Made by a program: the position numbers and the translations under genes. DNA of 64,000 bases from Candidatus Bruticola sp. (GTDB taxonomy: Bacteria; Vulcanimicrobiota; Xenobia; Xenobiales; Xenobiaceae): the NCBI GenBank assembly GCA_051874735.1, contig JBJEGD010000026.1, forward strand, positions 162,247-226,246. The letters run 5' to 3'. A model generated the notes under the pieces. It was not told where the DNA came from and did not search any database. It saw only the letters and a program-made list of their open reading frames with translations. Positions 6,774 to 55,841 of the stretch are shown here, one piece after another (the stretch's first letter is position 1; each line of letters starts with the position of its first letter).

Positions 6774-6844
6774 GGATTGTAAAATTGGTCCCATCAATAT
6801 TGAGATGGCCCGTGAGGGCCGAGAAAGCGAGTGGAGTAGGCTAA

Positions 6845-7467: not shown

Positions 7468-7506
7468 GGGCCGTTTCAGCTAATCTGAAGGCTCGTTTTT
7501 ATTTTT
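7468..7506 (+). terminator. rho-independent terminator after the 178-aa secreted protein gene
   Basis: GC stem (gggccgtttcag / ctgaaggctc) with a small bulge, followed by tcgtttttattttt. Confidence 0.45.
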
Positions 7507-7679
7507 ATATTAAAAATACCCATAATTCTAACGTTAATAAAATATAGACTGTTTATAATAAAAAGAGGTTGAGCGGATTTTTTATCTTACGTTGAAAATT
7601 AGCGTTCGATCTGCTCGCTGCAGAGGGGGGAATACCTCTAATTTGTTTTATTTTATATTGTGTCTATGGAGTCTGTATC

Positions 7680-9617
7680 ATGGCTGTGCAAACTTACGAA
7701 TTTCAAGCTCAAGCTCGTCAGCTTTTAAATTTAGTTATAAACTCAATTTATTCCAATAAAGAAATCTTTTTGCGCGAGCTCCTTTCGAATGCTTCTGACG
7801 CAATGGACAAATTGCGCCTTGAGTCGCTGCAAAACTCCGATTTGAAAGCTGATATATCCGATTTACATATTACTATTGAGCGCGACAGCGAAAAGCGCAC
7901 TTTAAAAGTTATCGACAACGGCATTGGCATGAATGCTGAAGAACTGAAAAACTTAATTGGTACTATCGCTCGCTCTGGTACTGCTGAGTTTCTGAAGCAA
8001 GCTGCAGAAAATAAAACTGCTGCAGCTGAACTTATTGGTCAGTTTGGCGTTGGTTTCTACTCTGTTTTTATGGTCGCTGATAAAGCTGTCATCGAAACCC
8101 GTAAAATTGGTGAAGAAGAAGGTTACAGATGGGAGTCTGCTGGCGATGGTTCTTACACTATTGAAGAAGCTGGGAAACTTCCTCAGGGTACGGCCATTAC
8201 TTTATACTTAAAAGATACTGATGAAGAAAACGGTATCGATGACTACACCCAGGAATGGGTTATCCGCGACTTAGTCAAACGTTATTCCGATTTTATCTCT
8301 TATCCCATCAGAATGATGGTGACTAAGCGCGAAAGTGTGCCTGCTGAAAAGGAAGGCGATGAGCCTAAGACTGTAGAGAAGCAGGAAATGGAGACTTTAA
8401 ATTCTATGAAAGCGCTGTGGGCGCGATCTGAAAGCGAAGTCGACTCTAAAGAATATAACGATTTTTACCGCCTTATTGCCCACGATTGGCAAGATCCTTT
8501 GAAAGTTATCACCATGAAAGGTGAAGGAACTTTCGAGTTCCAGTCATTGCTCTTTATACCTGCCAAAGCTCCTTTCGACATGTATATGCCGGATAGCAAG
8601 AGGGGAATCCAGCTTTATGTAAAGCGTGTTTTTATTATGGATGACTGTGAAGAGCTCATCCCACCTTATCTGCGCTTCCTCCGCGGTGTGGTTGATTCGG
8701 CTGATCTGTCCCTCAATATATCTAGGGAAATTTTACAAAAAGATCGTCAAATTAAGGCTATAAACAAGAGTATTGTTCGTAAAGTACTGAGCACTCTCAA
8801 AAGTATGATGGATGAGGATCCTGAACAGTACCGCAAATTCTGGCGTGAGTTTGGCAAAGTTCTTAAAGAGGGACTTTATAATGATAGCGCTAACCGCGAG
8901 AAGATTTTAGAAGTTATGCTGGCCGATTCCACAAATTCTGCTGAGTTGACTTCTTTGAACGACTATATTTCTCGCATGAAAGAGGGCCAGGAAAATATTT
9001 ACTATATTGCCGGAGAAAACCGCGAACGTTTAGCCCAAGCTCCGCAAATGGAAGTTTTTAAAGCCAAAGGTATAGAGGTACTTATACTTAGCGATCCCAT
9101 TGACTCTGTTTGGGTGGAAATGGTTGGTGAGTATAAGGACAAGAAGTTTAAGTCTGTGTTGCGTGGAGCGGTTGAACTTGGTGATGAGGCCGAAAAGAAA
9201 GCTGCTGAAGAAAAATTGGAAGCTCAGCGCAAAGACTTAGCCTCTATGATTGCTTGGATGGGCAGCGGTTTAGATAGTAAAGTTAAAGAGGTTAGGGTAT
9301 CCAATCGTTTGACCGATTCTCCTGCCTGTTTAGTTTCTGATGAAAATGATCCTACTCCATCAATGGAAAAAATCATGAAGGCCATGGGGCAAAATTTCCC
9401 AACTATCAAGCGTATTTTAGAAATTAATCCGGAGCATCCCATCATTAAACGTCTGCACGAACTTTACACTCAAAATGGTGACAGTGAAGAACTTAAGTCT
9501 GTGACTAGTTTGATTTACGATCAGGCCATTTTAGCTGAAGGTGGCGAACTCGCTGATCCGGCTAGTTTTTCTGCCGCTTTAAGTAAAATTATTAGTAAGG
9601 CTCTGCAGCAGAACTAA
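7680..9617 (+). CDS. htpG: molecular chaperone HtpG (Hsp90 family)
   Basis: Canonical N-terminus YEFQAQARQLLNLVINSIYSNKEIFLRELLSNASDA, then IGQFGVGFYS, full length 645 aa. GGAG RBS 8 nt upstream. Confidence 0.97.
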   Translation: MAVQTYEFQAQARQLLNLVINSIYSNKEIFLRELLSNASDAMDKLRLESLQNSDLKADISDLHITIERDSEKRTLKVIDNGIGMNAEELKNLIGTIARSGTAEFLKQAAENKTAAAELIGQFGVGFYSVFMVADKAVIETRKIGEEEGYRWESAGDGSYTIEEAGKLPQGTAITLYLKDTDEENGIDDYTQEWVIRDLVKRYSDFISYPIRMMVTKRESVPAEKEGDEPKTVEKQEMETLNSMKALWARSESEVDSKEYNDFYRLIAHDWQDPLKVITMKGEGTFEFQSLLFIPAKAPFDMYMPDSKRGIQLYVKRVFIMDDCEELIPPYLRFLRGVVDSADLSLNISREILQKDRQIKAINKSIVRKVLSTLKSMMDEDPEQYRKFWREFGKVLKEGLYNDSANREKILEVMLADSTNSAELTSLNDYISRMKEGQENIYYIAGENRERLAQAPQMEVFKAKGIEVLILSDPIDSVWVEMVGEYKDKKFKSVLRGAVELGDEAEKKAAEEKLEAQRKDLASMIAWMGSGLDSKVKEVRVSNRLTDSPACLVSDENDPTPSMEKIMKAMGQNFPTIKRILEINPEHPIIKRLHELYTQNGDSEELKSVTSLIYDQAILAEGGELADPASFSAALSKIISKALQQN

Positions 9618-38088: not shown

Positions 38089-39540
38089 TTACTTTACTTC
38101 CTGTCCTTGATAATCGTATTTCATGGCGCCTTCGATATTGAGACGCGCTCCGCTGCCAACTTTTCCTTGAAGACTTTCCAGTTGATCCCCTCCCTTAGTG
38201 AGGCGGGTCATCAGCTCGTCGTTGCTCATGTTGGGATCCATAGCTAGAAGCAGACCGGCCGCGCCGGTAACATGGGGAGTGGCCATAGAAGTGCCGCTGT
38301 ATACCGCATAACCTCCGCCAGGAACGGTAGATAGGATGTCTTTACCGGGAGCGGCAATATCAACATTCTTTTCTCCGTAACAAGAGAAACCGGCCAGTTG
38401 ATCGTTGCGGTCTGTAGCTGCTACAGCCAAATTATTCGGCAGATTGTAGTCAGAAGGATAGTGAGGATGAATGTCATTATTCGTGCCGCTGTTGCCGGCA
38501 GACATCATGTGCAGGGCTTCAGAAGAGTTGCGGAAAGCCTCTTCGATAGCAGGGTTAGCCGGGCCGCCTCCCCAAGAATTGGAGGTCAAGCGAGCACCCA
38601 CAGAATTGGCGTAGTTAATACCGCGGATAATTGAAGCTGCATCAGCGCCGCCGTCGTCACTGAATATTTTAACGGGCAGTATTGAAGCTGACCAGTTGAT
38701 GCCACTGATACCCTCGCCATTGTTGCCTACAGCACCAATCGTACCGGCTACGTGAGAACCGTGACCTTGGCGATCCATGACGTCGCCATTTTGCAGGCAG
38801 GCGTTCCACCCGTGATAGTCGTCGATAAAGCCATTGCCGTCGTCGTCAATACCGTTTCCGGGAATTTCCCCCGTGTTGGTATAAATATTGGCGGCTAGAT
38901 CTGGGTGAGTAATATCGACTCCGGTATCAATAACTGCAATTAGCGGACCTTGGCCGTTGGGCATACCGGTAGTAATCTGCCAGGCTTCAGGAGCGTGAAT
39001 ATCGGCGCGAGCTGTACCATTTTTACTACCATCGTTATACATATCCCACTGTTGTTCGAATTTGGCATCGTTGGGGACCTTGCCTTCAGCCAGCTGCTCT
39101 CTAGTGAATTCCTGACCTTTAACTACATCTTCAGCGTGATAAATAGTGTTAGGAACAGCAAATTCGATGTTGGGATCTTGCTGCATTTGGGCTAAAGCTT
39201 CTTCTGTGGTCATGCCTTCCGGAAGCTGGAGTTGCATCATTTCGCCCATATCGGCAGCTTTAACGCGTCCGGGGATTTGGAAATTGTCTAAAACTTTAGC
39301 GCCGTATTTCTCGGCGACATTCTCTGTGTTGGCGCTGGCCAACAAGGAGCCTTTAGTTTTAATTATAACTTGGCCGGGAACAAATTCTCCTAAGGAACTT
39401 TTTTCGGAGCCTAAGCTGACAGAATCGGAGCCTACTTGCGGATTGGTATTCTCAGATTTAGCTTCAGGCTGACCGGCAACCTGAGGAGTGTAAGTGCTCT
39501 GCATCTGGTTGATGCTGTTGGAGCCAATATTAGAGATCAT
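38089..39540 (-). CDS. subtilisin-like serine protease (S8) with I9-like pro-domain, paralog A
   Basis: Asp VIDTGVD, His HGSHVAGTI, Ser GTSMATPHV. Pro-domain-like PGQVIIKTKG...AEKYGAKVL...EEALAQMQQDPNIEFAVPN. AGGAGG RBS 4 nt before the ATG. The N-terminus is polar with no Sec signal. Confidence 0.9.
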   Translation of the reverse strand: MISNIGSNSINQMQSTYTPQVAGQPEAKSENTNPQVGSDSVSLGSEKSSLGEFVPGQVIIKTKGSLLASANTENVAEKYGAKVLDNFQIPGRVKAADMGEMMQLQLPEGMTTEEALAQMQQDPNIEFAVPNTIYHAEDVVKGQEFTREQLAEGKVPNDAKFEQQWDMYNDGSKNGTARADIHAPEAWQITTGMPNGQGPLIAVIDTGVDITHPDLAANIYTNTGEIPGNGIDDDGNGFIDDYHGWNACLQNGDVMDRQGHGSHVAGTIGAVGNNGEGISGINWSASILPVKIFSDDGGADAASIIRGINYANSVGARLTSNSWGGGPANPAIEEAFRNSSEALHMMSAGNSGTNNDIHPHYPSDYNLPNNLAVAATDRNDQLAGFSCYGEKNVDIAAPGKDILSTVPGGGYAVYSGTSMATPHVTGAAGLLLAMDPNMSNDELMTRLTKGGDQLESLQGKVGSGARLNIEGAMKYDYQGQEVK

Positions 39541-39710
39541 GCTGCCTCCTCAATAATTTTTTTCTGTGCACATTCGACTTTTAGCCTTTTTTATTCTCTT
39601 GAAGCTCGTTTGTGCCTTCCTGCTCAGTAAAGGCCTCAAGATAAAAAAGTCGCATATCTTGCTGTTTGATGGCTATAGTCAGCAAATAATTATGTTGTTT
39701 ACAGACAACC

Positions 39711-41210
39711 TTACTGCTGAGCGATATGATACTCGTATTCCATGGCTTTATTGACATTCAGGCGGCCGCCGGAAGAAACTACGTTTTGTAGTCCGTCAAT
39801 CTTATCAGAACCTTCTAGAAGTCGAGTTTTGAGCTCATCGTTGCTCATGGTGGGATCCATAGCCAAAAGTAATCCGGCCGCACCGCTTACATGAGGAGTT
39901 GCCATAGAAGTTCCGCTCTTAGAGGCGTAACCTCCGCCTGGAACTGTGGAGTAAATGTCCTTGCCTGGAGCTGCTATATGGACTGATTCTTTGCCATAGC
40001 AGGAGAATTTGGCTAATTTATCGTTGCGATCGGTAGCTGCTACTGTAATTGAGTTATGTAAAGGATAACTGCCTGGATAGTGCGGCACTTGATCGTTATT
40101 GTCAGCAGAGTTGCCCGCTGCCATAATGTGCAAGGCCTTAGAGTGGGCGAAGGCGTCGCGTATGGCCAAGTTGGCCTCTCCACCTCCCCAGGAGTTGGAA
40201 GTTATGCGAGCACCGTTGTTGGAAGCGTAATTAATGCCGCGTATAATGGCAGCTGCATTAGTGCGTCCGTTGTCGTCAAAAATTTTAACGGGCATAACAG
40301 TTGCCTGCCAATTGACGCCGACAACTCCTTGACCGTTATTACCTTCTGCCGCAATGGTGCCGGCGCAGTGGGTGCCGTGAGAGTGGACATCCATGGGATC
40401 GCCGTTGTCGCTAAAGGCGTTGTAGCCGTGGACGTCGTCAACTACACCGTTGCCGTCGTCGTCTATGCCGTTGCCGGGGATTTCGCCGGGATTAGTCCAA
40501 ATATTATTAACTAAATCGGGATGGTTATAATCGACGCCGGTATCGATTACTGCAATAATTGGTCCTTGTCCGTTGGGAAGGCCAGTAGTTTTCTGCCAAG
40601 CTTGTGTCGCTCCGATATCGACGCCGGGAGTGCCGCCGTCCTGACCGTCGTTCTTTAACCCCCAAAGTTTTGAGTCAAGATCGTTAGGGACTTTACCTTC
40701 AGAGGTGGAGAGTTTAGCGCTAGTTGTTCCAGCTTCGGACGGTACCTCATCTTCTAAGGTATATATAGAGTTGGGGACGGCATATTCAATCTCAGGGTCT
40801 TCCTGCATAACGGCTAAGGCTTGAGCTGTAGTCATGCCTTCTGGTAGTTGCATATGGAGCATCTCACCCTGCATACCCTTGAAGATGCTGGCTTTGTTAT
40901 TAAACTTTTCTAGAACAACTGCACCGTATTTTTGGGCTATGTTGCTGGTACTCTGCATGAGAGTACCTTTTGTTTTGACAATAACTTGACCGGGTACGTG
41001 GGGCTCGAGATCCTGTTCTAATTGGGCCGCTTTAGTACTGGAAGCAGCTAAAGCTTTTTCCAGTTTAGTTTGAGGGCGAATGTCTACCTGATCGGCCTGT
41101 GAAGCCTGACAGTAAACGGTTTCCTCTTGGGGGGGCTGCGCTTTGGCTATAGTAGCAGTGCTGCCCGGCTGCAGATTGGATATGTAAGCAGAGCCAATAC
41201 TGTTGATCAT
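39711..41210 (-). CDS. subtilisin-like serine protease (S8) with I9-like pro-domain, paralog B
   Basis: VIDTGVD, HGTHCAGTI, GTSMATPHV. Start set at ATG 41210 (MINSIGS...) by a GGAGG RBS 4 nt upstream and by alignment with paralog A. The ORF is open to 41252. Confidence 0.88.
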   Translation of the reverse strand: MINSIGSAYISNLQPGSTATIAKAQPPQEETVYCQASQADQVDIRPQTKLEKALAASSTKAAQLEQDLEPHVPGQVIVKTKGTLMQSTSNIAQKYGAVVLEKFNNKASIFKGMQGEMLHMQLPEGMTTAQALAVMQEDPEIEYAVPNSIYTLEDEVPSEAGTTSAKLSTSEGKVPNDLDSKLWGLKNDGQDGGTPGVDIGATQAWQKTTGLPNGQGPIIAVIDTGVDYNHPDLVNNIWTNPGEIPGNGIDDDGNGVVDDVHGYNAFSDNGDPMDVHSHGTHCAGTIAAEGNNGQGVVGVNWQATVMPVKIFDDNGRTNAAAIIRGINYASNNGARITSNSWGGGEANLAIRDAFAHSKALHIMAAGNSADNNDQVPHYPGSYPLHNSITVAATDRNDKLAKFSCYGKESVHIAAPGKDIYSTVPGGGYASKSGTSMATPHVSGAAGLLLAMDPTMSNDELKTRLLEGSDKIDGLQNVVSSGGRLNVNKAMEYEYHIAQQ

Positions 41211-41335
41211 GGAACCTCCGTTGATACTGCAAATAGACTTTGCAGTGAACAAACAATTCTACATTCTTTAGTGTAGGCTAAAATCGTTTTCTACGTGTAA
41301 TCATGAAGTTAACGTTTCGCCGTTATAGTTGGCGG

Positions 41336-43790: not shown

Positions 43791-44453
43791 TTACTTAGTA
43801 GGCAAATTTTTGATATTGACTTTGGCAGTGGATTGAGCTGCCTGATTGTTTTTGCCTTTTTTATTCGTTTGATTTTGTGGATTAACTTTAACTACCGCTG
43901 AGCCTGGTTGAACTGGCCGAGGGTTGCTTGGAACTACTGCCTGAGGTTCTTGAGGCTTTACTGGAGCTGGAGACGAAGGTACCACTGCTTCCGGATCGCT
44001 AGGTTTTACTGGCGATGGAGCAGTGGGAACTCCTGGTTTAGGGGGAATTGGAATGCCCGCTCTAGGAGTTTGAGGAGGCTTAGAACCAGTTTCCCCTGAG
44101 GGCGGCTTGGTCATTTTTCCTGATACACTTGATGAATTGCCGTTTTCATCGTAAGCATTTTTAATCAGAGACGCCTCTACCTCTGGAGCAGGTTCCCCAG
44201 GCTGAAGTTCTGGATTACTATTGAATTGGACTAGTGTTTCCGCTGTTGCAGAAGAAGGATTCGAGCTGGGAACAGGAGTCGCCTCAATATATTTAGGCGT
44301 TGGGTTGGGAGGCTTGTTTGAAGCCTCCTGGGAAGTGATTACAGATGGATTTGTTCCTTCTGCTGGGGATGAATTCGGTGCAGCACAAGAAATGGCCCCC
44401 ATACTTAGTACCAGAGAACCGATTAGAAGCTTTACAATAGAATTATATCTCAT
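43791..44453 (-). CDS. proline-rich secreted protein, possible lipoprotein
   Basis: Signal peptide with SMGAISC (lipobox-like). The mature part is Pro/Ser/Val-rich with an imperfect tandem repeat P-x-PVKP-x-x-P-x-AVVPS. Confidence 0.6.
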   Translation of the reverse strand: MRYNSIVKLLIGSLVLSMGAISCAAPNSSPAEGTNPSVITSQEASNKPPNPTPKYIEATPVPSSNPSSATAETLVQFNSNPELQPGEPAPEVEASLIKNAYDENGNSSSVSGKMTKPPSGETGSKPPQTPRAGIPIPPKPGVPTAPSPVKPSDPEAVVPSSPAPVKPQEPQAVVPSNPRPVQPGSAVVKVNPQNQTNKKGKNNQAAQSTAKVNIKNLPTK

Positions 44454-44537: not shown

Positions 44538-46244
44538 TTATTTAAGAAAAAGCTTGGCAAAAGCCTTTGGACTTAAAGGCTCTCCAGTAGCTTCTTTGCA
44601 CATTTCTTGCCAGTTGGTACGATTGCCGACGGAAAATACCTTTTCACGCAAATAATTGCCCGCTTTAGGTTCGTTGTAGAAAGAAGTGTCTAAAGGATTT
44701 TCCTTGCCAATGATGTTCTTAGCCATATAATTGTACAACTGCGATGCGAAAAGGTCGCCCATCATGTAGTTGTGATAGTAAACTGGAGCACCAACTATAT
44801 GCATTTTAGCGCCGTAATCTTGGCCAGACATACTTATAGGCGGAGCTTGCAGCTGGTATTTAGCTTTCAAATCCCACCAAAGTTTATTCAGATCCTGATT
44901 GGGGTTGGCATACATTTCCTTCTCAAAGTGGAGCATAGTCTGAGTCCAGCGGCTGAAAATAAGGCGCTCGGAACGCAGCAGACGCCATGAAGCTTTTGAA
45001 TAGTTGTCTAGCTCTTGGCCGCTGAGTCCAACAACATTATGCAGAAAATCTGGAGTGCGTGTCATTTCACCCATAAACATAGCGAAACCTTCGGTGGTTA
45101 AAATGTGGGCTGGAGTTCGCAACAAATAAGGTTGGGCAGGATCAATATATTGATCGTAGAGGCCGTGTCCCAGTTCATGATTAATCGTATCCATCCAGGC
45201 GCCGTTGGGTTTTATGTTGCATAGCACGCGGATATCTTGTTCCCTGTCTATGCAAGTTTCGAAAGCATGAGGACTTTTGCCGTTGCGTTCATAAAGATCG
45301 CTGCGGGATATAATTTTGCTGGGATCCATACCTAAACTAACATAGTATTTAGTGGACAGGGCGACTGGGTCTTTATCTTTATAAATATCGTCAAGATTTA
45401 GTCCGTTTTCTTTAAGTTCCGGCGCTTCTTGGAAGAAGAGATCGCCTAAATGCCAAGGACGAACGGCTTCATTATCTTTAAGACCGAAACGTTTGCGCTG
45501 GTAAGTGTCAATCTCTTGTTTTAGTTCGGTAAATGGAGCTTTAGTTAGTTTGTCCAGTTCGTCAAAAGTGTCAAACAGCTCTTTCTCATCGAACTCTTGC
45601 ATATCAAGTTGCATGGCAAAGAAGTCGCGGTAGCCAAGCTGCCTAGCCATTTTATTGCGCAACTTAACTAAATCTTTTAGAGGCGCAGAAACTTTTTGGC
45701 CTACTTCCATATAGCCCAACCAAGCTTGACGCACTTTATCATTATTATCGCTCTCTGCAATAATTTTGCGCACATCATTTTCCGTTAACTTCTGGCCGTT
45801 GACTAAGCTACGGTGAGTATTAAAAATTTTATCAACTTCAGCTTCTCTAGAAATTATTTTAGAAGTAATGTCGGGATCAGCCTGATAAGGCAGATAAGCG
45901 TAGTATATTATGTCTAATTCTCTAGCTTCAGTAGGATCGGTAATCGCTTTAGATTGGCGCAGCTTTTGTAAGTCGGAGAAAGTTTTTTTATCTTGATGGA
46001 GAGCAGCCATGGCGTTATCTGCTTTTTCACGCCTGGCGTAAGCTTCATCTGAACCGGTGGTTGATGACTCCCACCAGGCCTCGTTAGCTTCTTTTTCTAA
46101 AGGTTTTATTTGGCTTATATATCGATCGCGTATAGCGGCAAACTGCTGTTGGGGAGTGGGGGGCACCGCTTGCACCATCGTTCCACCTAAAATTGCTGCT
46201 CCTAGTACGGCAGCTGCAGCAGCAAAGCGAAATTTTTTAGACAT
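44538..46244 (-). CDS. secreted gluzincin metallopeptidase (M2/ACE-like or M3-like)
   Basis: Signal peptide AAAAAVLGAAILGGTMVQA. HELGH zinc motif with a downstream Glu (TEGFAMFMGE). N-terminal ANEAWWESSTTGSDEAY resembles the ACE-family N-terminus. Exact family is uncertain. Confidence 0.72.
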   Translation of the reverse strand: MSKKFRFAAAAAVLGAAILGGTMVQAVPPTPQQQFAAIRDRYISQIKPLEKEANEAWWESSTTGSDEAYARREKADNAMAALHQDKKTFSDLQKLRQSKAITDPTEARELDIIYYAYLPYQADPDITSKIISREAEVDKIFNTHRSLVNGQKLTENDVRKIIAESDNNDKVRQAWLGYMEVGQKVSAPLKDLVKLRNKMARQLGYRDFFAMQLDMQEFDEKELFDTFDELDKLTKAPFTELKQEIDTYQRKRFGLKDNEAVRPWHLGDLFFQEAPELKENGLNLDDIYKDKDPVALSTKYYVSLGMDPSKIISRSDLYERNGKSPHAFETCIDREQDIRVLCNIKPNGAWMDTINHELGHGLYDQYIDPAQPYLLRTPAHILTTEGFAMFMGEMTRTPDFLHNVVGLSGQELDNYSKASWRLLRSERLIFSRWTQTMLHFEKEMYANPNQDLNKLWWDLKAKYQLQAPPISMSGQDYGAKMHIVGAPVYYHNYMMGDLFASQLYNYMAKNIIGKENPLDTSFYNEPKAGNYLREKVFSVGNRTNWQEMCKEATGEPLSPKAFAKLFLK

Positions 46245-46865
46245 ATATCTTCCTCTTTTATGACAATTTAGGCTAATAGTGTACCTTCAATTCTTTGGTA
46301 ATTTTTCTTTTTAAGTCAATTCCTTTTTTTTTGCATTAAGGTCAACCTAAGCGACTTAACCGATAACATGCAGTCAATCGCCTAATCACATAATAACCGT
46401 GTTTAATATGCAGTTTCCTGTTTGTTTTGCGCATATGATGTCAACAATATTTCTAAAATGATTTTTGTTTATAATTTTTTTAATAAAAATAAAAAAATGG
46501 TTACTTATTATGGTAGGCATGATTGGAGTGTTTAGTAGTCAAGTTCATTTGTATGTGTCCATGCAGATTGAGCTTCAATAAATAAGCATAAAGTTTATCT
46601 TGTAACAATTGATTGCAAAAATCAGTGTTAAACAGTTTTTGATTACGATTTGATCGTTTATTAGGCTTCTTGTATGCCTAAAAACTTTGTTCGGCTTAGT
46701 AAATTCAGTTGCAAAATAGATTGTAACTGAAACGATTTGATAATTGACGCATATTTCTCTTTGTCGGCTATGCACGCTGGGTAGTTAATGAATTTGTTTA
46801 CGGGTAGTTTGTCTGTATTTTCATAGAAAAGTATGAGTTTTTGTTGAGGAGGTAGCGTTGCTGTA

Positions 46866-49361
46866 ATGATTAATATGTCTTTTGAGGTAGAAGCTGCCAG
46901 TTATGAGCCTCTTCCAGTGAAATATTTAAAGGTTGAGCGGTTACCTGAGCACGATGAAAGAGTGAAATCGCTATCTAATTATCTGCCATCTAGCCAACAG
47001 CGTTTTTTTTTAGATAAGGTTTATCCATTTACTTATTATTTCCACTGTCAGCAGAAGCGTCACAGTGGAGAACCATATATTGTACATCCGATTTCTGTAG
47101 CCGAAATTTTGTCAAAATATCAGGTCGATTTGCCGACTTTGTCTGCTGCTCTTATGCACGACGTATATGAAGATCATAGCGATGAAATTTCTTTAAGTGA
47201 GATACGATGTTACTTCGGCTGCAATATTTGTAATATGGAGGATGGATTAACTAAAATAGGTATTGCTGCTTCCAAAAATCGCCGAGAAACGGCTGCCCTG
47301 AGAGAACAACTTCCCAAAGATCGTATAGATTCTATCGCCAATCAAAATATATACAATTCGATTTCCAAGCTTGGGGGGCAGCAAGAAGGGAGCTATTCCC
47401 AAACTTCTCCCGAAGAAGCGGCAGCTAGAGCAAAGCGTATAAAAATTGCCAACAAAAATGCTTCTTTAGCTAAATTACTTCTGGGGATAGCTTCAGACCC
47501 ACGCGTTATTTTGATTAAGCTGGCTGATAGACTCGATAATATGCGTACTTTGGACAGCTTGAGACCTGACAAACAGCAGAGAATAGCCAGAGAAACTTTA
47601 GAGTTCTTCTGTCCCATAGCCGATCGTTTCGGAGTTTGGGAAATAAAAAAAGAATTGGAAGATTTGTGTTTTCGTTATCTTTACAAAAATATATACAATA
47701 ATTTCAAAAAACAGGCAGAATTAGTTCGGGCCAAGAGACGAGGCAGTCTTGAAAAGACTGCTGAAAGAATTAGAAATCTACTAAACAGCAAATCTGTTGC
47801 TGCTGAAGTCCATATTAAAGACAGTAGTTTATATACCGTTTTCAGGCGGATGGAAAACCATGGACAAACTTCCATCGATGATGTTATAGGCTTGAGTTCT
47901 ATTGTCATAGTTGCCGATAGCGAATCTTCCTGTTATACCGTAGAAGGACTTATTAAGAGTAATCTTTCTTTCTGTGGCAGCAGTTTCTATAAAGATTACA
48001 TATCTTTGCCAAAGGCCAATAAATATAAGGCTATTCACATGGCTGTTTGGTCTGAAAGGCATATTACTAAAATACGTATATTCTCAGCTCAAGATCTTGA
48101 AATAAACAATATAGGCGTTTTTTCCGAGTTTAAAGGGTTGCCTTCAAGTTTGGAAGATAGCGATGTCAGCCGAATTATCAGTAAAAAATGGGCTACTTGG
48201 ATTCAATCTTTGAGAGCTTTGCACGACGTCGCCGCTGAAAATACCGATTTTCTTGATTGGGCTATGAGCGGTACGCTGACCCACTCAATTACTTGTTTTA
48301 CCTCCTGCGGTGACATGGTTAACCTGCCTATAGGGGCGACTCCGCTCGACTTCGCTTTTGCTCTTAATGTAGATTTGGGATTAAAGTGTGAAGGTGCGCT
48401 GGTAAACGATCAATCAGTATCTTGTTTAGATTATAAACTTAAGGATAACGATTTTGTCAAAATTATCAGTTCTGATTCGGTGATTATACAACGCAGTTGG
48501 TTCGATTGTTGTTGCACTCCGGAAGCTCGTTCTGCTCTTAGTACCTGGTATAAAAATAATTACAGCGCTGAGTCCAATCGTGCCTACGGGCAAAAATTGC
48601 TAACATCTGTTTTGATTAAAGCTAATCTTCCCGGTATGCAAAACAACGAAGAGTTTTTGAAACAATTAGCTCAAAAATGCACCTGTCCTTCCGTGCAGGA
48701 AATGTTGGAAATGATTGGCACTCGCCGCATTAGTCTAAAATTCGTTCGTGAACAGTTAAACGACTGTTTAAGTACTTATCGAAATGGCCGCGAAGACTGC
48801 GATCGGATGACAGAAAATAGCGATATCTCAGCTCTGGTGCACATACGTCGCTTTGATCGTTTCAAAGTTTGTGCTTGCAGTGAGTGTCTGCCTTTAATAG
48901 GCGACGATATTTTCGTTATGGGAGCGGCTCCTGGACAGCTGATTTTACATCGACGTGGCTGCGCGGATGCTGAAAAAAAATTACTCCTAGCTACTCAGAG
49001 TAGCGCTAGGCAAGATGCTACTCTTCCTGTTAAGAGCACCGAATTAAGGCGCGATCTGGAGCCGCTAGTCATTCATGAAAATGCCTCTTGGTTGGAAGAC
49101 AGTCATTCCAATGTGTCTGATCTCGGGCTGAGAGCTGAATTGACTGTAAAATCGGTCTACAGTTTTTCTTTAGCAGCAGAAATCATTGTGTGCTGTAACG
49201 ATCGCGATGAAAAAATTTATAACCTAAAATTAGACAATAATTTTGTTGGAGGAGCTTCTAGTTTGAGTATGCTTGTTGGAGTATCCAGCCTCAGCGAATT
49301 GGAAAGTCTGATTTCGTGTATAAAAAAGATAGATGGTGTCGTTGAAGTAACGCGTATTTAA
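46866..49361 (+). CDS. long RelA/SpoT homolog 1 (HD + degenerate synthetase + TGS + Zn-finger + ACT)
   Basis: HD motifs RHSGEPYIVHP, HDVYED, LADRLDNMRTL. TGS segment LPIGATPLDFAF. CxxC...HRRGC zinc-finger domain. The synthetase region lacks the EIQIRT...AAHW.YK motifs and reads KIRIFSAQDLEINNIGVFSEFKG. Confidence 0.85.
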   Translation: MINMSFEVEAASYEPLPVKYLKVERLPEHDERVKSLSNYLPSSQQRFFLDKVYPFTYYFHCQQKRHSGEPYIVHPISVAEILSKYQVDLPTLSAALMHDVYEDHSDEISLSEIRCYFGCNICNMEDGLTKIGIAASKNRRETAALREQLPKDRIDSIANQNIYNSISKLGGQQEGSYSQTSPEEAAARAKRIKIANKNASLAKLLLGIASDPRVILIKLADRLDNMRTLDSLRPDKQQRIARETLEFFCPIADRFGVWEIKKELEDLCFRYLYKNIYNNFKKQAELVRAKRRGSLEKTAERIRNLLNSKSVAAEVHIKDSSLYTVFRRMENHGQTSIDDVIGLSSIVIVADSESSCYTVEGLIKSNLSFCGSSFYKDYISLPKANKYKAIHMAVWSERHITKIRIFSAQDLEINNIGVFSEFKGLPSSLEDSDVSRIISKKWATWIQSLRALHDVAAENTDFLDWAMSGTLTHSITCFTSCGDMVNLPIGATPLDFAFALNVDLGLKCEGALVNDQSVSCLDYKLKDNDFVKIISSDSVIIQRSWFDCCCTPEARSALSTWYKNNYSAESNRAYGQKLLTSVLIKANLPGMQNNEEFLKQLAQKCTCPSVQEMLEMIGTRRISLKFVREQLNDCLSTYRNGREDCDRMTENSDISALVHIRRFDRFKVCACSECLPLIGDDIFVMGAAPGQLILHRRGCADAEKKLLLATQSSARQDATLPVKSTELRRDLEPLVIHENASWLEDSHSNVSDLGLRAELTVKSVYSFSLAAEIIVCCNDRDEKIYNLKLDNNFVGGASSLSMLVGVSSLSELESLISCIKKIDGVVEVTRI

Positions 49362-49445
49362 GCAGAAAGAATAGTCTTTTTTTATAGATATATCTCAACA
49401 ACTAAATCATATATCAATTTACAAAAAGAAAGGTTAGCTAGTTCT

Positions 49446-51842
49446 ATGACTTATATTCCTGAGGGCTGCAATCCGCAGGCAAAGTTTGACAAGCAAGGTC
49501 CCAATTATCCTGAGTTTGAGGATAGTGTAAGAAAAAGCTCCGCTCACCTTTCGCCAGAATGTCGCGATTTTATCGTTAATAAGGTTTATCCTTATGCTAA
49601 TTATTGGCATCAGTTTCAAAAGCCGCGCATTAACGGTAAGCCGTATATCTCTCATCCTGTAGCTGTAGTCGGCATTCTAGCTCCCTATAAACTTGATGTT
49701 TCCAGTGTGGCGGCAGCCCTGCTTCACGACGTCCATGAAGATAACGAAAATGATGTAAGTCTAGATGATATCAAGGAGCTATTTGGTACTGATATACGCA
49801 ATATTGTCGATGGTTTGACAAAAATAGGCAAGGCCAGTGCTAGACAGCGTCGCGAAGCGGTGCGAGCAGCTGTATGTGAAGCTTCTGCCGGTTTACTGAG
49901 TTCGTTACAGGCTTCTTTCGGACTTAATTTGGGAATAGAGAATAATTTAGCCGTTCCTTTAACTCCCGCTCAAATCAGAGAAAGAGCTCGCCAAGCTAAA
50001 CTAGATGATAAGGCAGCCAGTCTTACCAAGCTAGTTACAGAGATGGCCAGGGATATACGCATTATCATTGTTAAGTTGGCAGACCGCCTGCATAATATGT
50101 ATACTTTAGACGGGCTACGCCAAGATAAACAAATACGTATTGCTCAAGAGACTTTAAATTTTTTCGCTCCTTTAGCAACCCGTTTAGGTATGTGGCCTTT
50201 TAAGGTGGAGCTGGAAGACCTATGCTTCAAATATTTAGAACCTAGTCAGTATACTGAATTAAAAGAAAATTTAGCTGCTGAAAGGAGTCGTCGCTCAGAA
50301 TCTTTGGCGCAGACTTTAGAGTCAATACGCAAATCTTTAGTACAAGAAGGCATTTCGGCCAAGGCAGAGCTGCACACTAAATCACTTTATTCTGTGTTTG
50401 CTAAAATGCGACGTCAGCATAAAACTTTAGAGCAAATTTTCGATTTAGATCCTATATCTATAGTGGTTGATGATAAAAATACCTGTTATCAGGTACTGAG
50501 GGTCATTCATCAGCGTTTTGGATTTTTGCAGGGGAAATTCCGCGATTATATTGCTAATCCTAAAAGCAATAATTATCAAGCTTTGCACACTACAATTTCG
50601 GCTGACGGCCGACTGCCTGTGGAAATTCAAATCTGCACGTATGATGAAGAAGCTGAGAATAACTTGGGAGTGCTCAATGTTTTTGTCTCGGGAAGGTACA
50701 GCGCTGAAGCTAATAGCGGTGAAGTTAACAAACTATTTCGTCCTTTTGCTCCTTGGTTAGCCTCTTTAAGCCATATAAAAGAAGGTTGTAAAGAAGATCA
50801 AGACTTTTTAGATGTTCTCTGTCAGGATGAGCTTACTGTTGGAGTAGTCTGCACTACTCCGGACGGTCGCAGCATTGAATTGCCGCAAGGAGCAACACCT
50901 TTAGACTTCGCCTTTAAAATTCATACTCAGTTGGGATTGTGTTGTACTGGAGCTATTATAAATGATAGGGAAGTATCTCTGACTGGTTATGAACTGCGTG
51001 ATAACGATGTTGTGCAAATTCTGTCTTCTGATAAGGAGAATCCGTCCCGTAATTGGTACGCCCATTGTCGGACTAGGCAAGCGCGCTCAGTTATAAGTAA
51101 GTGGTTCTTTGTAAATCAGACGCCTGAGCCTAACCGCACTATAGGTTATAAAATGATTTGTGCGGAGCTGATTCGTCAGGGTGCCGCTGGAGCGCAGACT
51201 AATGCTGAAATTATGAAAGCTATGGTGAGTTCTCTCAATTTCAAGTCACTTGAAGAACTTTATATCGCTATAGGCAGCTTTCGTACTCCTATGTCAAATT
51301 TTTCTAAGTGCTTCAAAAATTACCGTGAGAATAATCCTCAGCAGTTTGACAATTTAGATTGCGATCCAATGCGTTTGCGCGATATCTCTCTGTCAGTAAG
51401 GATTGCAGAGCAGCCTAAGGCTCGTTGCTTTGCCTGTAGACAGTGTACTCCTGTTTTTGGAGATTCTATTAAGGCTGTGGGTGGCAAAAAGAATAAGGGA
51501 TATGTCATTCATCGCGGCAGTTGTTCTTTGATCGCTGAAGCCGCTGGGGCCGGAAGGCGAATTTATGAAGCAGAGTGGATCAGTGGCATCGATCCTAAAC
51601 TATTCATGCTGCGTGCCACCATTCAAATATGTGCTTTAGTGCGTCATGGATTGTCTAATTCCGTTATTAGTGTTTTTGACAGTAAAAATGTTCTAATATA
51701 CAACTACAAGTTCACTAATGATTACGCTAAAAATGTGACCAGTATAAAAATAGAAGTAGGTGCTGCTTCTATAGAAGAGCTGGAAATGCTGATGGATGAG
51801 CTGCGGTCTGTGGACAGTGTAGTTACAGTTGAAAGAGCCTAA
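49446..51842 (+). CDS. long RelA/SpoT homolog 2 (HD + degenerate synthetase + TGS + Zn-finger + ACT)
   Basis: RINGKPYISHP, HDVHED, LADRLHNMYTL. TGS segment LPQGATPLDFAF. The synthetase region reads LHTKSLYSV...DLDPISIVV...EIQICTYDEEAENNLGVLNVFVSG, so the key Arg and the HW.YK residues are replaced. Confidence 0.85.
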   Translation: MTYIPEGCNPQAKFDKQGPNYPEFEDSVRKSSAHLSPECRDFIVNKVYPYANYWHQFQKPRINGKPYISHPVAVVGILAPYKLDVSSVAAALLHDVHEDNENDVSLDDIKELFGTDIRNIVDGLTKIGKASARQRREAVRAAVCEASAGLLSSLQASFGLNLGIENNLAVPLTPAQIRERARQAKLDDKAASLTKLVTEMARDIRIIIVKLADRLHNMYTLDGLRQDKQIRIAQETLNFFAPLATRLGMWPFKVELEDLCFKYLEPSQYTELKENLAAERSRRSESLAQTLESIRKSLVQEGISAKAELHTKSLYSVFAKMRRQHKTLEQIFDLDPISIVVDDKNTCYQVLRVIHQRFGFLQGKFRDYIANPKSNNYQALHTTISADGRLPVEIQICTYDEEAENNLGVLNVFVSGRYSAEANSGEVNKLFRPFAPWLASLSHIKEGCKEDQDFLDVLCQDELTVGVVCTTPDGRSIELPQGATPLDFAFKIHTQLGLCCTGAIINDREVSLTGYELRDNDVVQILSSDKENPSRNWYAHCRTRQARSVISKWFFVNQTPEPNRTIGYKMICAELIRQGAAGAQTNAEIMKAMVSSLNFKSLEELYIAIGSFRTPMSNFSKCFKNYRENNPQQFDNLDCDPMRLRDISLSVRIAEQPKARCFACRQCTPVFGDSIKAVGGKKNKGYVIHRGSCSLIAEAAGAGRRIYEAEWISGIDPKLFMLRATIQICALVRHGLSNSVISVFDSKNVLIYNYKFTNDYAKNVTSIKIEVGAASIEELEMLMDELRSVDSVVTVERA

Positions 51843-51876
51843 AAAATACAGCATTGTCATTTGAGGTTTATAAAAA

Positions 51877-54213
51877 ATGGGAGAAGAAAAGAAGTTATTG
51901 GAAAAAAAAGCTGAGGTTGCTTTAAATGGAAAAAAGATAGATTTAAATAAAGAGCTGCCTGCATTTAAGCAGCAGTTAGAAGACAAATATTGGTCGAAAT
52001 TGGCTCAATGCGCTTCTTATCTTGATGAAGAACGGCTGAAAAAATTGAGAAAAGCTCTCGATTTAGCTTTTCGAGCCCATGATGGGCAGTTCCGATTTTC
52101 TAATGATCCTTATGTCGATCATCTTGTTGAAGTAACCAAAATTTTAGCTTCTTACCATTTGGATTCCACTACTTTGTGTACTGGGATGTTGCACGATTTA
52201 ATCGAGGAAGAAACTGGTGTTAGTCTTGACTATGTGACTGAGCAGTTTGGTAAAGAACTTAGTAATTTAATTAACGATGTCACCAATCTTACTAAGCGTT
52301 TTGCCAGCGAAACTGAAAATTTAGAAAATAAAGATCGACGCCAATCGAAAGAATTTACTCGCTTGGGAGGCAAAGAGGCTGCCGACGAAAATTTGCGCAA
52401 AATCTTTTTGGTCATTGCTCGTGATTTGCGTGCCATTTTAGTTAAATTTGCCGATCGCTTACACAATCTTCGTACTTTAGAATTTTGCAAAGTTGATTTG
52501 CAGAAAAAGATTGCGCAGGAAACTTTAGATATTTTCGCTCCGCTAGCTTCGCGTTTAGGGGTTTGGGAGTTTAAAGCTGAATTAGAAAATTTATCTTTTC
52601 GGTATGCACTACCGGAAGAGTATCTGGCACTCAATCGCGATTTAGAAGAAGTGCGCCCTGCTTTTGTCGCTGTCATGGACAAAATCGTAGCAACTTTAAA
52701 AGAAAATCTGCGAGAATTAAATGTAGAAAACGAGTTAGAGTATCGTTTTAAACATCTTTACAGTATTTATCGTAAAAAGGTGCGTTCTCATAAAAGTTTA
52801 TCCGAAATTTACGATCTAGCGGCCATACGCGTTTTAGTGCCTACAGTAGAAGATTGCTATATGATTTTCGGTTTAGTGCACTCTTTATGGTCTCCCATGC
52901 AAGGACGCATTAAAGATTATATAGCTCATCCTAAGCCTAATAATTACCGTTGCCTGCATACTACGGTTATAGGACCTGATGATGTGCCAGTAGAGATCCA
53001 GATTCGTACTTTTGAAATGCATAAAGTTAACGAAGTTGGCGTGGCCGCTCACTGGGCTTACAAAGAAGGCAAAGTGAGCGCCGATAAGAGTCGGCGTGAT
53101 ATCTTCGCTGAATTGTATCCGTGGATTAGAGCTCTCTTTGATTGTAGTCATGAAGATGAAAGCGATGTCGGTGAACATGCCAAGTTTAGTGTACCTTCTA
53201 ATGAAGTTTTTGCCTTCACTCCCTTAGGCGATGTTGTCAATTTGCCCATGGGAGCAACACCTATTGATTTTGCTTACCGAGTACATAGCGAAGTAGGTAA
53301 CCGCTGTGTGGGAGCCTTAGTCAATGGGCGTATAGTACCGCTTACTTATAAGTTATCTACTGGCGATCAAGTAGAGATAAAAACGGCCAAAAATGGTACT
53401 CCTTCGCGCGATTGGTTGCGTATTTGTACGAGTCATCAAGCTTTAAGTAAAATCCGCGGTTGGTTTAAACGAGAGCGCCGGGAAGAAAATATCATCTGCG
53501 GACGGGAAGCGGTGAAGGCTGAACTGAAGCGCCTTCGTTTAGAAGACCTTCTCAACAATGAAGAAATTATGCTCAAAGCTGCTCAACAGCTAAGCTTTGT
53601 CAGCGGTGATGACTTATTGGCCAGTATAGGTTATGGTGAAACTTCTGTTTTGCAAGCTGTCAGCCGTCTGCAGAATGCTCTGCCTAAAACTGAAGTTGCG
53701 CCCGAAATCCCTCTGCCGGAAAATTCGCAGGCTGCCGCTAAGCGTTCAGGATCTGGACGAGAAGTTATTGTTGAAAATATTGATACCCTTTTAACTAAGA
53801 TGGCCCGCTGCTGCATGCCCGTGCCCGGAGATGATATCATTGGATATATTACGGTCGGCAGTGGAGTCTCTGTACATAGGGCTGATTGCGTTAATTTCGC
53901 CCATCTGTCCAAAGTGCATCCTGAGCGCGTTGTTCAATGTGCCTGGAATACTTCTTCTGTGCAGGCTAGTAAAACTTACTGGGTTCATATTGTCATTGAA
54001 GCGTGGGATCGCTCTGGATTAGTTGGTGAAGTGTTGGCGTGTCTTAGCGATATACGGATAAGTGTAAAATCTTGTCAGGCGCTTACAGTTGGCGATAAAG
54101 CCAAGATAAAGCTTTCTGTTGAAGTTACTGGCAACAAGCAGCTGGAAGAAGCCCTTAAAAGATTAGGGGGAGTAAAGAGTGTATTTTCGGCAGTTCGTTC
54201 TAAAAACAGATAA
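51877..54213 (+). CDS. rel: bifunctional-type (p)ppGpp synthetase/hydrolase, canonical long RSH (Rel)
   Basis: Complete synthetase signature: [66 protein letters not shown] domain ([18 protein letters not shown]), [16 protein letters not shown] Zn-finger and ACT are present. dtd follows, as in many genomes. Confidence 0.92.
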
Positions 54214-54272
54214 ATTTCTACTGCACTGAAGAAGGGCAGGGTTGCTCTAGTTTCAACAGAAAGTATAGCAGT

Positions 54273-54725
54273 ATGCGTGCAGTTGTTCAAAGAGTCTTAG
54301 GCTCTAGCGTGGAAGTAGATAATCAGGTTGTTGGCCAAATAGGGCAGGGACTTTTAGTTTTAGTAGCTGTTCATTGTGATGATACTGAGAAAGAAGCTGA
54401 CTGGCTAGCTCATAAAATAACTCATCTGCGTATCTTTTCCGATGAAAATGATAAGATGAATTTGAGCGTTTCCGATATCGGCGGGCAAGTATTAGTCGTT
54501 TCTCAGTTTACCCTTTACGGCGATTGTCGCAAAGGTTTGCGTCCTAGCTACAGTCATTCAGCGGCGCCTCAAGAAGCTTCGCGCCTCTATTCCTATTTCG
54601 TAGAAAAAATCAAATCTTGTGGTTTAGAAGTTCAGGAGGGAGTCTTTCAGGCTCACATGCTGGTTAGTTTAGTTAATGACGGTCCAGTTACCATTATAAT
54701 CGATACCCCTAGCATAACTAAGTGA
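54273..54725 (+). CDS. dtd: D-aminoacyl-tRNA deacylase
   Basis: MRAVVQRV..., [33 protein letters not shown]. Canonical DTD, 150 aa. Confidence 0.93.
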
Positions 54726-54737
54726 GGTTAGTTTACC

Positions 54738-55130
54738 GTGGCTTATAAAGTTTTTGTAGTTGACGATTCCAAGTTTATGCGCATGATGCTGGGAGAAGTT
54801 ATTACTTCTATGGGATGTGAAGTCATCGAAATAGACAGCGGGCGGCGCGCTGTAACCATGTATGAGCATTATAAGCCTGATTTGGTGACTTTAGACATTC
54901 TGATGCCTGAACAGGATGGTATTGAAACGCTTAAGCAGCTTTTTGATACCGATCCTAACGCTAAGGTTGTTATGGTGACGGCATTGGGTATGGAAGATTA
55001 CATTAAGCAGGCGATGGAGCTAGGGGCCTGTGGTTTTATTGTGAAGCCTTTTTCCGCTGAGCAAGTAGAAACAGTACTTTCGGAAGTCTTAGGCGATCCT
55101 TCTTTGCACATTTCGGCTGATGAATTTTAA
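54738..55130 (+). CDS. single-domain CheY-like response regulator receiver
   Basis: VFVVDDS, phospho-acceptor context LVTLDILMP, VVMVTA, KPF. GTG start 12 nt after the dtd stop. Confidence 0.88.
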   Translation: MAYKVFVVDDSKFMRMMLGEVITSMGCEVIEIDSGRRAVTMYEHYKPDLVTLDILMPEQDGIETLKQLFDTDPNAKVVMVTALGMEDYIKQAMELGACGFIVKPFSAEQVETVLSEVLGDPSLHISADEF

Positions 55131-55160
55131 CAGTTCATTGGCAGGCTGGTAGCTCAAAGC

Positions 55161-55841
55161 TCAAATTATAGGGGCGCTCAGTACCGCTATAACTCTGCCT
55201 TTGTGGCATTTCAATTGAGCTTGTTCGGCCGTTATTACATTAGAAAGTCCTCTAGTAGAAGAACGTTGCAGCAGACTGTGTTCAAGGGGCCATTTAGTTC
55301 CTGTTACGCTTATTTCTACTTTGCTGTCTAGGGCAATGAGCGAAAGAATCCACCCTTGGAAACCTCTCCAAGAGCGGTTTTTTTGTTGCAGTTGGCAAAC
55401 TTGGCAGCCTGGCTCTACTAGAACAGTGTCTAGGCCTAATTCATCGGCTAATTGAAGTAAGCTGATAACATTAAATAAACAATGATCTAAACGGCCCCCG
55501 AGGGCGGCGGCTATGACAGCTTGATAAAAACCTAATCTGTGAGCGGCGCGCAGGGCCAGTTCCAGATCGCTGTAATTTTTGTCACAAGGAAAAGTTAAGA
55601 CTTGCTGACAACTTTTCTGCATGTCAGCTAGAACATTTTGAGGCAAAGAATCGAAATCGCCCAGCATTATATCTGGATGCAGTCCGCTTTTCTGTAGATA
55701 GAGCGCTCCGCGGTCGGCAGCAATAATACAGTCGCCGATTCTATACAATTTATATAGCCAGTCTGGGGGGGGAGGGGAGCCGCCGCCTACAATAAAAGCC
55801 CGATTAAAAGCAGAAAAATGGCTACTTTCTAGAGTGTCCAT
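55161..55841 (-). CDS. thiN: thiamine pyrophosphokinase
   Basis: IVGGG...IAADRGA...PD.MLGDFDS motifs. Overlaps the 3-prime end of thiT by 20 nt. Confidence 0.82.
   Translation of the reverse strand: MDTLESSHFSAFNRAFIVGGGSPPPPDWLYKLYRIGDCIIAADRGALYLQKSGLHPDIMLGDFDSLPQNVLADMQKSCQQVLTFPCDKNYSDLELALRAAHRLGFYQAVIAAALGGRLDHCLFNVISLLQLADELGLDTVLVEPGCQVCQLQQKNRSWRGFQGWILSLIALDSKVEISVTGTKWPLEHSLLQRSSTRGLSNVITAEQAQLKCHKGRVIAVLSAPII

Follow-up and report, generated by a model that had tools for sequence, protein, structure and literature searches.

Three tandem RelA/SpoT homologues upstream of dtd

We analyzed a 64,000-nt stretch of DNA from Candidatus Bruticola sp., a gut-associated bacterium of the Vulcanimicrobiota, class Xenobia (contig JBJEGD010000026.1, positions 162,247 to 226,246 of the forward strand), here called the window, in whose positions all coordinates are given. 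At 46866-54213 on the + strand, the window carries three intact open reading frames (ORFs) of 831, 798 and 778 residues, arranged in tandem, each coding for a long RelA/SpoT homologue (RSH). Enzymes of this family synthesize and degrade (p)ppGpp, the alarm signal of starvation. These genes, referred to as copies 1, 2 and 3, lie directly upstream of dtd. The gaps between them are short (84 bp between copies 1 and 2, 34 bp between copies 2 and 3 and 59 bp between copy 3 and dtd), and a purine tract resembling a ribosome-binding site (RBS) precedes each RSH ORF. A scan of positions 46000-55400 for promoters and terminators showed no excess over shuffled sequence (20 against 20.3 and 9 against 8.3 expected). 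The operon structure is thus read only from the short gaps and the RBS-like sequences, and the three RSH genes are probably co-transcribed.

All three products have the architecture of long RSHs. The Pfam domains HD_4, RelA_SpoT, TGS and ACT_4 were found in each copy, as were the Cys and His ligands of the zinc-finger domain (ZFD); the match to TIGR00691 spans the full length of every copy, and the best matches in the PDB are Rel, RelA and SpoT. The scores of the individual domains set the copies apart. That of HD_4 varies little (114-132 bits; 114 for copy 1 and 116 for copy 2), whereas that of RelA_SpoT is highest in copy 3 (137 bits), intermediate in copy 2 (88) and lowest in copy 1 (35). 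Against TIGR00691, copy 3 scores 637 bits, above the cut-off of 499, and copy 1 scores 408 bits, below it. The pairwise identity among the copies is just 30-35%, which makes them old paralogues and not collapsed repeats or an assembly artefact. No RSH gene other than these three was found in the 64-kb window.

Synthetase residues of the three copies

Residues are numbered as in Rel of B. subtilis (BsRel, PDB 6yxa), a numbering that was rebuilt from the alignment and checked. The register was established in four independent alignments, made with phmmer against solved structures, with MAFFT L-INS-i and with profile-profile alignment in hhalign, all of which were concordant. Residue states were scored in 24 hydrolase-type (H-type, that is, copy 1- or copy 2-type) and seven synthetase-type (S-type) proteins. 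The orthologue group of copy 1 comprises P0001-P0011 (40-100% identity) and that of copy 2 comprises P0121-P0128 (50-100%); beyond these groups, identity falls sharply to that of generic Rel, at about 30%. When 1.84 billion representative proteins were searched with an H-type profile in HMMER, just eight 50%-identity clusters stood above the generic plateau, among about 6,600 RSH-like clusters at E<=1e-30. Rates of change within the domains were estimated by comparing the window with L002, a metagenome-assembled genome (MAG) described below. As synonymous sites are saturated in this comparison (pS about 0.75), only dN and upper bounds of pN/pS are usable; pN is well under the saturated pS in every domain.

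The original prediction, made from the DNA alone, held that copy 3 has a canonical synthetase whereas copies 1 and 2 have lost the synthetase motifs and kept those of the hydrolase. All 16 motif strings that it quoted were found, with coordinates agreeing to within 1-3 nt (for example, EVHIKDSSLYTVFRRM at 47805-47852 in copy 1, EIQICTYDEEAENNLGVLNVFVSG at 50622-50693 in copy 2 and EIQIRT...AAHWAYKEG at 52993-53070 in copy 3). In the synthetase (SYNTH) domain of known enzymes, R241 and R269 enclose the adenine of ATP between them, D264 and E323 (E323/324) hold the Mg2+ and the guanine stacks on Y308 (PMC7983052). In SaRelP, the adenine is stacked by Arg78 and Arg112, a hydrogen bond links His190 to the ribose of ATP, and Lys80 and Lys88 bind the phosphates (PMC5794853). 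Copy 3 has a canonical residue at every one of the synthetase positions, including R295-x-K297-D298, the RxKD motif of bifunctional Rel, and is the only one of the three copies with the complete set. R241, K243, K251, D264, R269, E324, Q326, R328, H343, Y346 and K347 are all invariant in 56 homologues of copy 3, down to 42% identity. Within the copy 3 group, the SYNTH domain is 0.79 identical, and its dN is 0.027.

In the H-type proteins, R328 and H343 are lost in 24 out of 24, W344 is replaced by F or Y in all of them, and R269, like R241, is missing from 20. The guanine-binding loop (G-loop; K304, N306, Y308 and H312), in contrast, is kept in all 24. Since the changed columns are invariant in the 56 homologues of copy 3, and yet R328 and H343 are replaced in every H-type protein, these changes are not due to chance. 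That the catalytic residues of copies 1 and 2 might be present but shifted was considered and ruled out: the four alignments give a single register, so that the residues are substituted.

In copy 1, the ATP and Mg2+ sites are almost entirely altered (R241K, K243S, K251R, D264G, R269V, E324K, Q326R and R328F, with FSEFxGL in place of AAHWxYK) and the G-loop is intact. Identity of the SYNTH domain within the group is only 0.45, and dN is 0.37. In the AlphaFold2 (AF2) model, with a confidence (pLDDT) of 87, the SYNTH fold is still predicted, at a pLDDT of 89-98, suggesting that the domain is relaxed but still folded. The best full-length structural match of this model is 7qpr, a hydrolase-only SpoT; full-length models superposed poorly in Foldseek (TMq 0.36-0.41, root-mean-square deviation (rmsd) 17-31 Å), so that such matches are uninformative on the tau versus the extended conformation, and only matches of the N-terminal domains are meaningful. 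Judged by its residues, copy 1 is almost certainly dead as a synthetase. For this copy, the predicted loss of the synthetase motifs is borne out; for copy 2, it was overstated.

The C-terminal half of copy 1 has also changed. The original prediction had all three copies retain the sensing C-terminal domains, and at the level of domains they do; some of the residues, however, are gone. The TGS histidine involved in sensing of the tRNA CCA end (BsRel H420) is replaced in 7 of the 11 copy 1 orthologues, including copy 1 itself, but is kept in all orthologues of copies 2 and 3. Moreover, the canonical zinc finger of long RSHs, CCxPxPGD...H...C, has become CxxCxPxxGD...H...C in every orthologue of copies 1 and 2. 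The H-type proteins of genomes with two copies retain the CC.

Some copy 1-type proteins show peculiarities of their own. P0011 (L004, 7606-9624) and P0362, of 641 and 661 residues, stop after the helical domain, so that ZFD and ACT are missing; in the same lineage, P0358 (792 residues) is full-length. P0010 has an insertion of about 28 residues, with a repeated DLDS/DLNS, directly after the strand equivalent to that of D264, resembling a small internal duplication, and P0011 and P0358 share a separate insertion of about 16 residues before the strand equivalent to that of E324.

Copy 2 presents a different picture. Its carboxylates, phosphate-binding lysines and guanine side (K243, K251, D264, E324, Q326 and the entire G-loop) show no loss in any of the 8 orthologues. 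The changes, R241H, R269S, R328C and LNVFxSG in place of AAHWxYK, fall on the adenine and ribose side, and most are fixed: R269 is lost, R328 is Cys and H343, W344, Y346 and K347 are replaced in all eight orthologues, and R241 is lost in five. The residues that bind adenine and ribose have been replaced by an equally invariant motif (QICT ... LGVLNVFVSGRY). With an identity of 0.71 within the group and a dN of 0.079, on par with that of the copy 2 HD domain, the altered SYNTH domain of copy 2 is, by these measures, as constrained as its hydrolase domain, and it is the domain of this copy that is best conserved and evolves most slowly. The AF2 model (pLDDT 89) keeps the SYNTH fold, and its N-terminal half is closest to chain B of RelSeq, the hydrolase-ON conformer (TM score 0.90, rmsd 2.7 Å; 6.5 Å for chain A), a likeness that we regard as weak evidence.

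What the SYNTH domain of copy 2 may do can be weighed from these residues. Copy 2 probably does not carry out normal ATP-dependent synthesis, and its intact G-loop and carboxylates suggest a retained nucleotide-binding or regulatory role or, less probably, an altered catalytic one. It could be argued that copy 2, together with similar partners in two-copy genomes such as L085_A (see below), is still bifunctional, with a weak or differently regulated synthesis as in E. coli SpoT[HS], and that only copy 1 is hydrolase-only. The retention of D264, E324, Q326, K243, K251 and the G-loop throughout the group, the strong conservation of the domain, its RelA_SpoT score, which is well over the Pfam cut-off, and the finding that H354Y in RelA lowers synthesis without abolishing it (PMC4154780) would all fit. 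The residues that copy 2 has lost are, however, invariant in the 56 homologues of functional type, and we consider a bifunctional copy 2 unlikely. Somewhat less likely still is a repurposing of the site in copy 2 and in L085_A-type proteins, whether for a pyrophosphate donor other than ATP, for another nucleotide reaction or as a sensor of GTP, GDP or (p)ppGpp that would gate the hydrolase through the enlarged H-loop hairpin described below.

Hydrolase residues and the alpha6-alpha7 loop

Ten hydrolase positions (listed for copy 1 in Table 1) are canonical in both copies 1 and 2 and invariant in 24 of 24 H-type proteins, in line with the earlier claim that these copies keep the hydrolase motifs. 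Among them are a canonical HDxxED and the Mn2+ ligands H53, H77, D78 and D144. We think it likely that copies 1 and 2 are both active hydrolases. Alternatively, the two copies could be non-enzymatic regulators or sensors, for example decoys that bind the ribosome or a nucleotide, with the hydrolase motifs kept for ligand binding only. RelA's pseudo-HD domain sets a precedent for a domain retained in a regulatory role (PMC8012599), the G-loop is retained in both copies, and an unusually long, conserved insertion adjoins the hydrolase site. But the invariance of the four Mn2+ ligands, the ED pair, R44, N148 and T151 is the pattern expected of catalysis, not of mere binding; the true pseudo-HD of RelA is devoid of HDxxED (PMC8012599); and an active synthetase in the organism requires a hydrolase. 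We find this alternative improbable.

Copy 3 departs from the canonical hydrolase motif, as the original prediction had noted, and the variant, HDLIEEE, is general to its clade. HDxxEExT (D82E with a one-residue insertion) together with H[L/V] was found in 18 of 18 members of the copy 3 clade, whereas HDxxEDT together with HP was found in 38 of 38 more distant homologues; in the residue table, D82E and P54L/V occur in 7 of 7 S-type proteins, all of which keep all the synthetase residues. Of the loci examined, each of the seven with several copies has the EE variant and both of those with a single copy lack it. This is the reciprocal signature to be expected if hydrolysis had moved to the H-type paralogues. 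The dN of the HD domain is 0.07-0.31 for copy 1, 0.08-0.09 for copy 2 and 0.10-0.16 for copy 3. The ratio of HD to SYNTH divergence in copy 3, 1.25, differs too little from the 1.14 of single-copy relatives for this copy to be called hydrolase-dead on account of a relaxed HD domain.

Copies 1 and 2 also have an insertion of about 50 residues in the loop between helices alpha6 and alpha7 of the HD domain (the H-loop), with flanks that are conserved among orthologues, and the loop is the longest among all the sequences compared. The alpha6-alpha7 segment measures 82-89 residues in copies 1 and 2, 53-73 in the H-type proteins of two-copy genomes, 47-75 in the copy 3 clade and 31-43 in canonical enzymes; it is of 43-44 residues in single-copy Rel of the Xenobium type and of 34 in Bacillus, Megasphaera and SpoT. 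In the AF2 model of copy 2, the insertion forms a hairpin of two helices (129-158 and 174-202), the distal part of which has a pLDDT of 51-78.

Table 1. Features of the RSH locus and its downstream partners (positions in the window)
Feature	Position	Strand	Remarks
Copy 1	46866-49361	+	long RSH, H-type, degenerate pseudo-synthetase domain, 831 residues
Copy 1 HD (hydrolase) domain	47028-47651	+	R44, H53, P54, H77, D78, E81, D82, D144, N148, T151 canonical
Copy 1 H-loop insertion (HD alpha6-alpha7)	47262-47459	+	segment of 88 residues; low AF2 confidence
Copy 1 pseudo-SYNTH domain	47799-48137	+	ATP and Mg2+ residues nearly all lost, G-loop kept
Copy 1 TGS counterpart of BsRel H420	48366-48368	+	tRNA CCA sensing; Asn, not His
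Copy 1 CxxC zinc finger	~48840-48950	+	coordinates approximate
Copy 2	49446-51842	+	long RSH, H-type, remodelled but strongly conserved SYNTH domain, 798 residues
Copy 2 H-loop insertion (HD alpha6-alpha7)	49830-50015	+	segment of 84 residues; modelled helical hairpin
Copy 2 SYNTH domain	50361-50693	+	carboxylates, phosphate lysines and G-loop kept; adenine/ribose side changed
Copy 2 CxxC zinc finger	~51430-51530	+	coordinates approximate
Copy 3	51877-54213	+	long RSH, S-type, fully canonical SYNTH site, RxKD motif, 778 residues
Copy 3 HL in place of HP	52120-52125	+	near variant hydrolase motif
Copy 3 variant hydrolase motif HDLIEEET	52192-52215	+	HDxxEExT: D82E and one-residue insertion
Copy 3 SYNTH domain	52735-53070	+	slowest-evolving segment of the three genes
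dtd	54273-54725	+	conserved downstream partner of RSH genes
Response-regulator receiver gene	54738-55130	+	conserved partner 3' of dtd

Upstream of copy 1, a 620-bp AT-rich gap without ORFs (46245-46865) separates the RSH genes from a divergently oriented M3/M2-like peptidase gene and has no promoter signal above the shuffled expectation. Further away, on the - strand, a gene at 43791-44453 codes for a low-complexity protein of 220 residues, rich in Pro, Ser and Ala, which has no recorded Pfam match and whose N terminus resembles a signal or lipoprotein sequence (…LSMGAISCAAP…). Two tandem genes for S8 subtilisin-like peptidases with a Fervidolysin N-pro-like domain, at about 38089-41252 on the same strand, are another local tandem duplication. 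No tRNA genes were found in the window.

Origin of the copies and their proposed division of labour

The order copy 1-copy 2-copy 3 recurs in three other MAGs, one from the human gut (L002) and two from the goat rumen (L003 and L004). More generally, a block of genes, rel-dtd-RR-TPK-YuaJ-L28 (RR, response regulator), is shared by genomes with one, two and three RSH copies, and it is directly upstream of dtd that the copy number varies. A single canonical Rel is found there in L082 and L083 (Ca. Xenobium), a doublet of an H-type and a copy 3-type gene in L005, L084 and L085, and the triplet in the window, L002, L003 and L004. L002 (CAAGRW010000041.1) is labelled 'Candidatus Riflebacteria bacterium', a label that is probably wrong: its RSH genes are 57-79% identical to those of the window, and the relatives are labelled Eremiobacterota or Ca. 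Bruticola. In L084, the H-type gene (5445-7900) is called as two ORFs of 188 and 604 residues in different frames, which could be the mark of a pseudogene, of a frameshift or of a faulty assembly; P0360, of 805 residues, is a full-length relative.

In a neighbour-joining tree (709 columns, 200 bootstraps), copies 1 and 2 group together, this pair groups with the H-type protein of L005 (L005_A) and copy 3 groups with its partner (L005_B), each with a bootstrap of 100%. The H-type clade groups with the Xenobia paralogues and not with the SpoT reference. Synteny and phylogeny together show a stepwise tandem duplication upstream of dtd, from one copy to two and to three, in a small subclade of the Xenobia (Vulcanimicrobiota). 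The H-type protein of the doublet in L085, L085_A, resembles copy 2 in that R241, K243, K251, D264, E324 and Q326 are kept, with R269G, R328C and FGEF in place of AAHW. What all the H-type proteins examined have in common is thus that R328 and the AAHWxYK helix are gone. The SYNTH domain, as read from these residues, decayed further in copy 1 and, independently, in the lineage of L005_A and L084_A.

Could copies 1 and 2 simply be decaying duplicates, that is, incipient pseudogenes, or even an artefact of assembly? Copy 1 does evolve about twice as fast as the others (75% identity to one Ca. Bruticola MAG, against 89% for copy 2 and 88% for copy 3), some of its orthologues (P0011 and P0362) are truncated at the C terminus and the H-type gene of L084 is split. 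However, no ORF is disrupted and an RBS precedes each, the same gene order is found in independent MAGs from different hosts, and the copies are too dissimilar to be collapsed repeats. Moreover, pN is far under pS in every domain and the hydrolase residues are invariant. These observations largely refute an artefact or pseudogenes, and we regard this explanation as very improbable.

The reading that we favour, with a probability of roughly 0.6, is that two successive tandem duplications of a single bifunctional rel gave rise to a sole efficient synthetase, copy 3, and to two hydrolases, copies 1 and 2. The ancestor in the Xenobia would have been a single bifunctional rel upstream of dtd. The first duplication would have produced an S-type paralogue, which kept the canonical synthetase site and gained HDxxEExT and H[L/V], and an H-type paralogue, which kept all the hydrolase residues but from whose ATP site R328 and the AAHWxYK helix disappeared; a second duplication, of the H-type gene, would have yielded copies 1 and 2. 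Efficient (p)ppGpp synthesis would then be left to copy 3 alone, with copies 1 and 2 as (p)ppGpp hydrolases. The SYNTH domain of copy 1 would serve as a non-catalytic scaffold, and its TGS domain would no longer read deacylated tRNA. That of copy 2, which presumably does not bind ATP productively and is yet under strong constraint, would probably still bind a guanine nucleotide through its intact G-loop, relaying this to the hydrolase domain. Of all this, the structure of the genes, the states of the residues, their conservation, the synteny, the order of duplication and the retention of the folds are established by the comparisons, whereas the enzymatic activities and any allosteric role are predictions. 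A division of labour between one synthetase and two hydrolase or pseudo-synthetase paralogues had been suggested in the original prediction, and the recurrence of the triplet in the same order, the one, two or three copies found at the dtd-linked locus of relatives, the uniform residue pattern of the 24 H-type proteins and the occurrence of the EE variant only where there is an H-type partner are in its favour. What does not hold is the equivalence of copies 1 and 2, as the former is degenerate and fast-evolving whereas the site of the latter is highly conserved.

Several points weigh against this reading. Copy 2 retains its carboxylates and phosphate-binding lysines and, in 3 of 8 orthologues, also R241, so that some residual or altered synthetase activity is conceivable. 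The correspondence of His190 of SaRelP with H343 is our inference. Copy 3 keeps the four metal ligands, with little sign of relaxation in its HD domain, and may retain hydrolysis. The alpha6-alpha7 loop is reported to be shortest in the hydrolase-only SpoT and longest in the hydrolase-dead RelA (PMC9974481, PMC8012599), and the position of the longest loop in the H-type copies 1 and 2 is the reverse of this trend. Monophyly of all the Xenobia paralogues has a bootstrap of just 44%, so that a single local origin rests mainly on synteny. Lastly, the survey of RSH genes covered the window, and the rest of the genome may hold small alarmone synthetases or hydrolases.

Paralogues that share out the synthesis and the hydrolysis of (p)ppGpp are known from Beta- and Gammaproteobacteria, and the split is complete in the Moraxellaceae, where SpoT[Hs] and RelA[hS] have fully subfunctionalised since rel was duplicated (PMC9974481, PMC3153485). 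As in Moraxellaceae SpoT[Hs] (A. baumannii SpoT, PDB 7qpr), a class defined by hydrolase activity and a lack of synthetase activity in vivo and in vitro, the H-type proteins combine an intact HD domain with a degenerate but retained SYNTH domain, beside a presumably dedicated synthetase paralogue. Unlike that pair, according to the tree and the synteny, they would have arisen independently in the Vulcanimicrobiota, in situ upstream of dtd, and there are two H-type paralogues instead of one, with all the genes in tandem. The details of the sites also differ. In A. baumannii SpoT, the Tyr of the G-loop is gone and GDP is not bound (PMC9974481), whereas K304, N306, Y308 and H312 are invariant in the H-type proteins; it has also lost the adenine-binding Arg residues as well as D272 and Q347 (RelTt numbering), the last two of which are kept in copy 2, while copy 1 has D264G, Q326R, R241K and R269V but also Y308. 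The alpha6-alpha7 loop of SpoT[Hs], a type that also has short linkers between its domains, is the shortest, and those of copies 1 and 2 are the longest seen (82-89 against 31-43 residues).

The E. coli pair RelA[hS]/SpoT[HS] offers a second parallel, since there, too, rel was duplicated and synthesis and hydrolysis were then partitioned. The S-type copy 3 clade is like RelA[hS] in having a longer H-loop (47-75 residues) than single-copy Rel (43-44) and unlike it in that copy 3 keeps the HD and E81, the metal ligands and RxKD, and has no EXDD. Also, in contrast to relA and spoT, the RSH genes are adjacent here and probably co-transcribed. The lineage-specific extra long RSHs RshA-D (Atkinson et al. 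2011) and plant RSH1 likewise go back to duplications of Rel, and one of their catalytic domains is divergent (PMC3153485); RshA-D, however, are described as [HS], and RshB diverges in its HD and not its SYNTH domain. In its predicted working, the locus resembles RelA/SpoT, especially the Moraxellaceae pair, but orthology, the G-loop, the loop length and the EXDD position place it outside those families. Its distinguishing features are the three tandem paralogues, the series of one, two and three copies in relatives, the two differently constrained pseudo-synthetase domains and the enlarged H-loop. To our knowledge and going by the text of that paper, though not by an exhaustive search, no member of RshA-D or plant RSH1 has been described as a tandem triplet with graded degeneration of the SYNTH domain. 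A literature search for Xenobia or Eremiobacterota in combination with ppGpp, within one collection of papers, returned nothing relevant.

Since the organisms are uncultured and the activities are deduced from sequence, the practical impact of the locus is modest. It would nevertheless represent an independent case of the split between synthesis and hydrolysis, in an uncultured phylum, in which the one-, two- and three-copy stages all survive at one position. The relatives form a natural series for the order in which a synthetase is lost: R328 and the AAHWxYK helix would go first, the adenine-stacking arginines next and the catalytic carboxylates last, with no change at any stage in the guanine-binding loop or the hydrolase residues. 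In addition, the locus contradicts a rule that has been proposed, namely that the alpha6-alpha7 loop shortens upon specialisation in hydrolysis. Finally, the two pseudo-synthetase domains, under very different constraint, may provide material for understanding how the SYNTH domain regulates hydrolysis.

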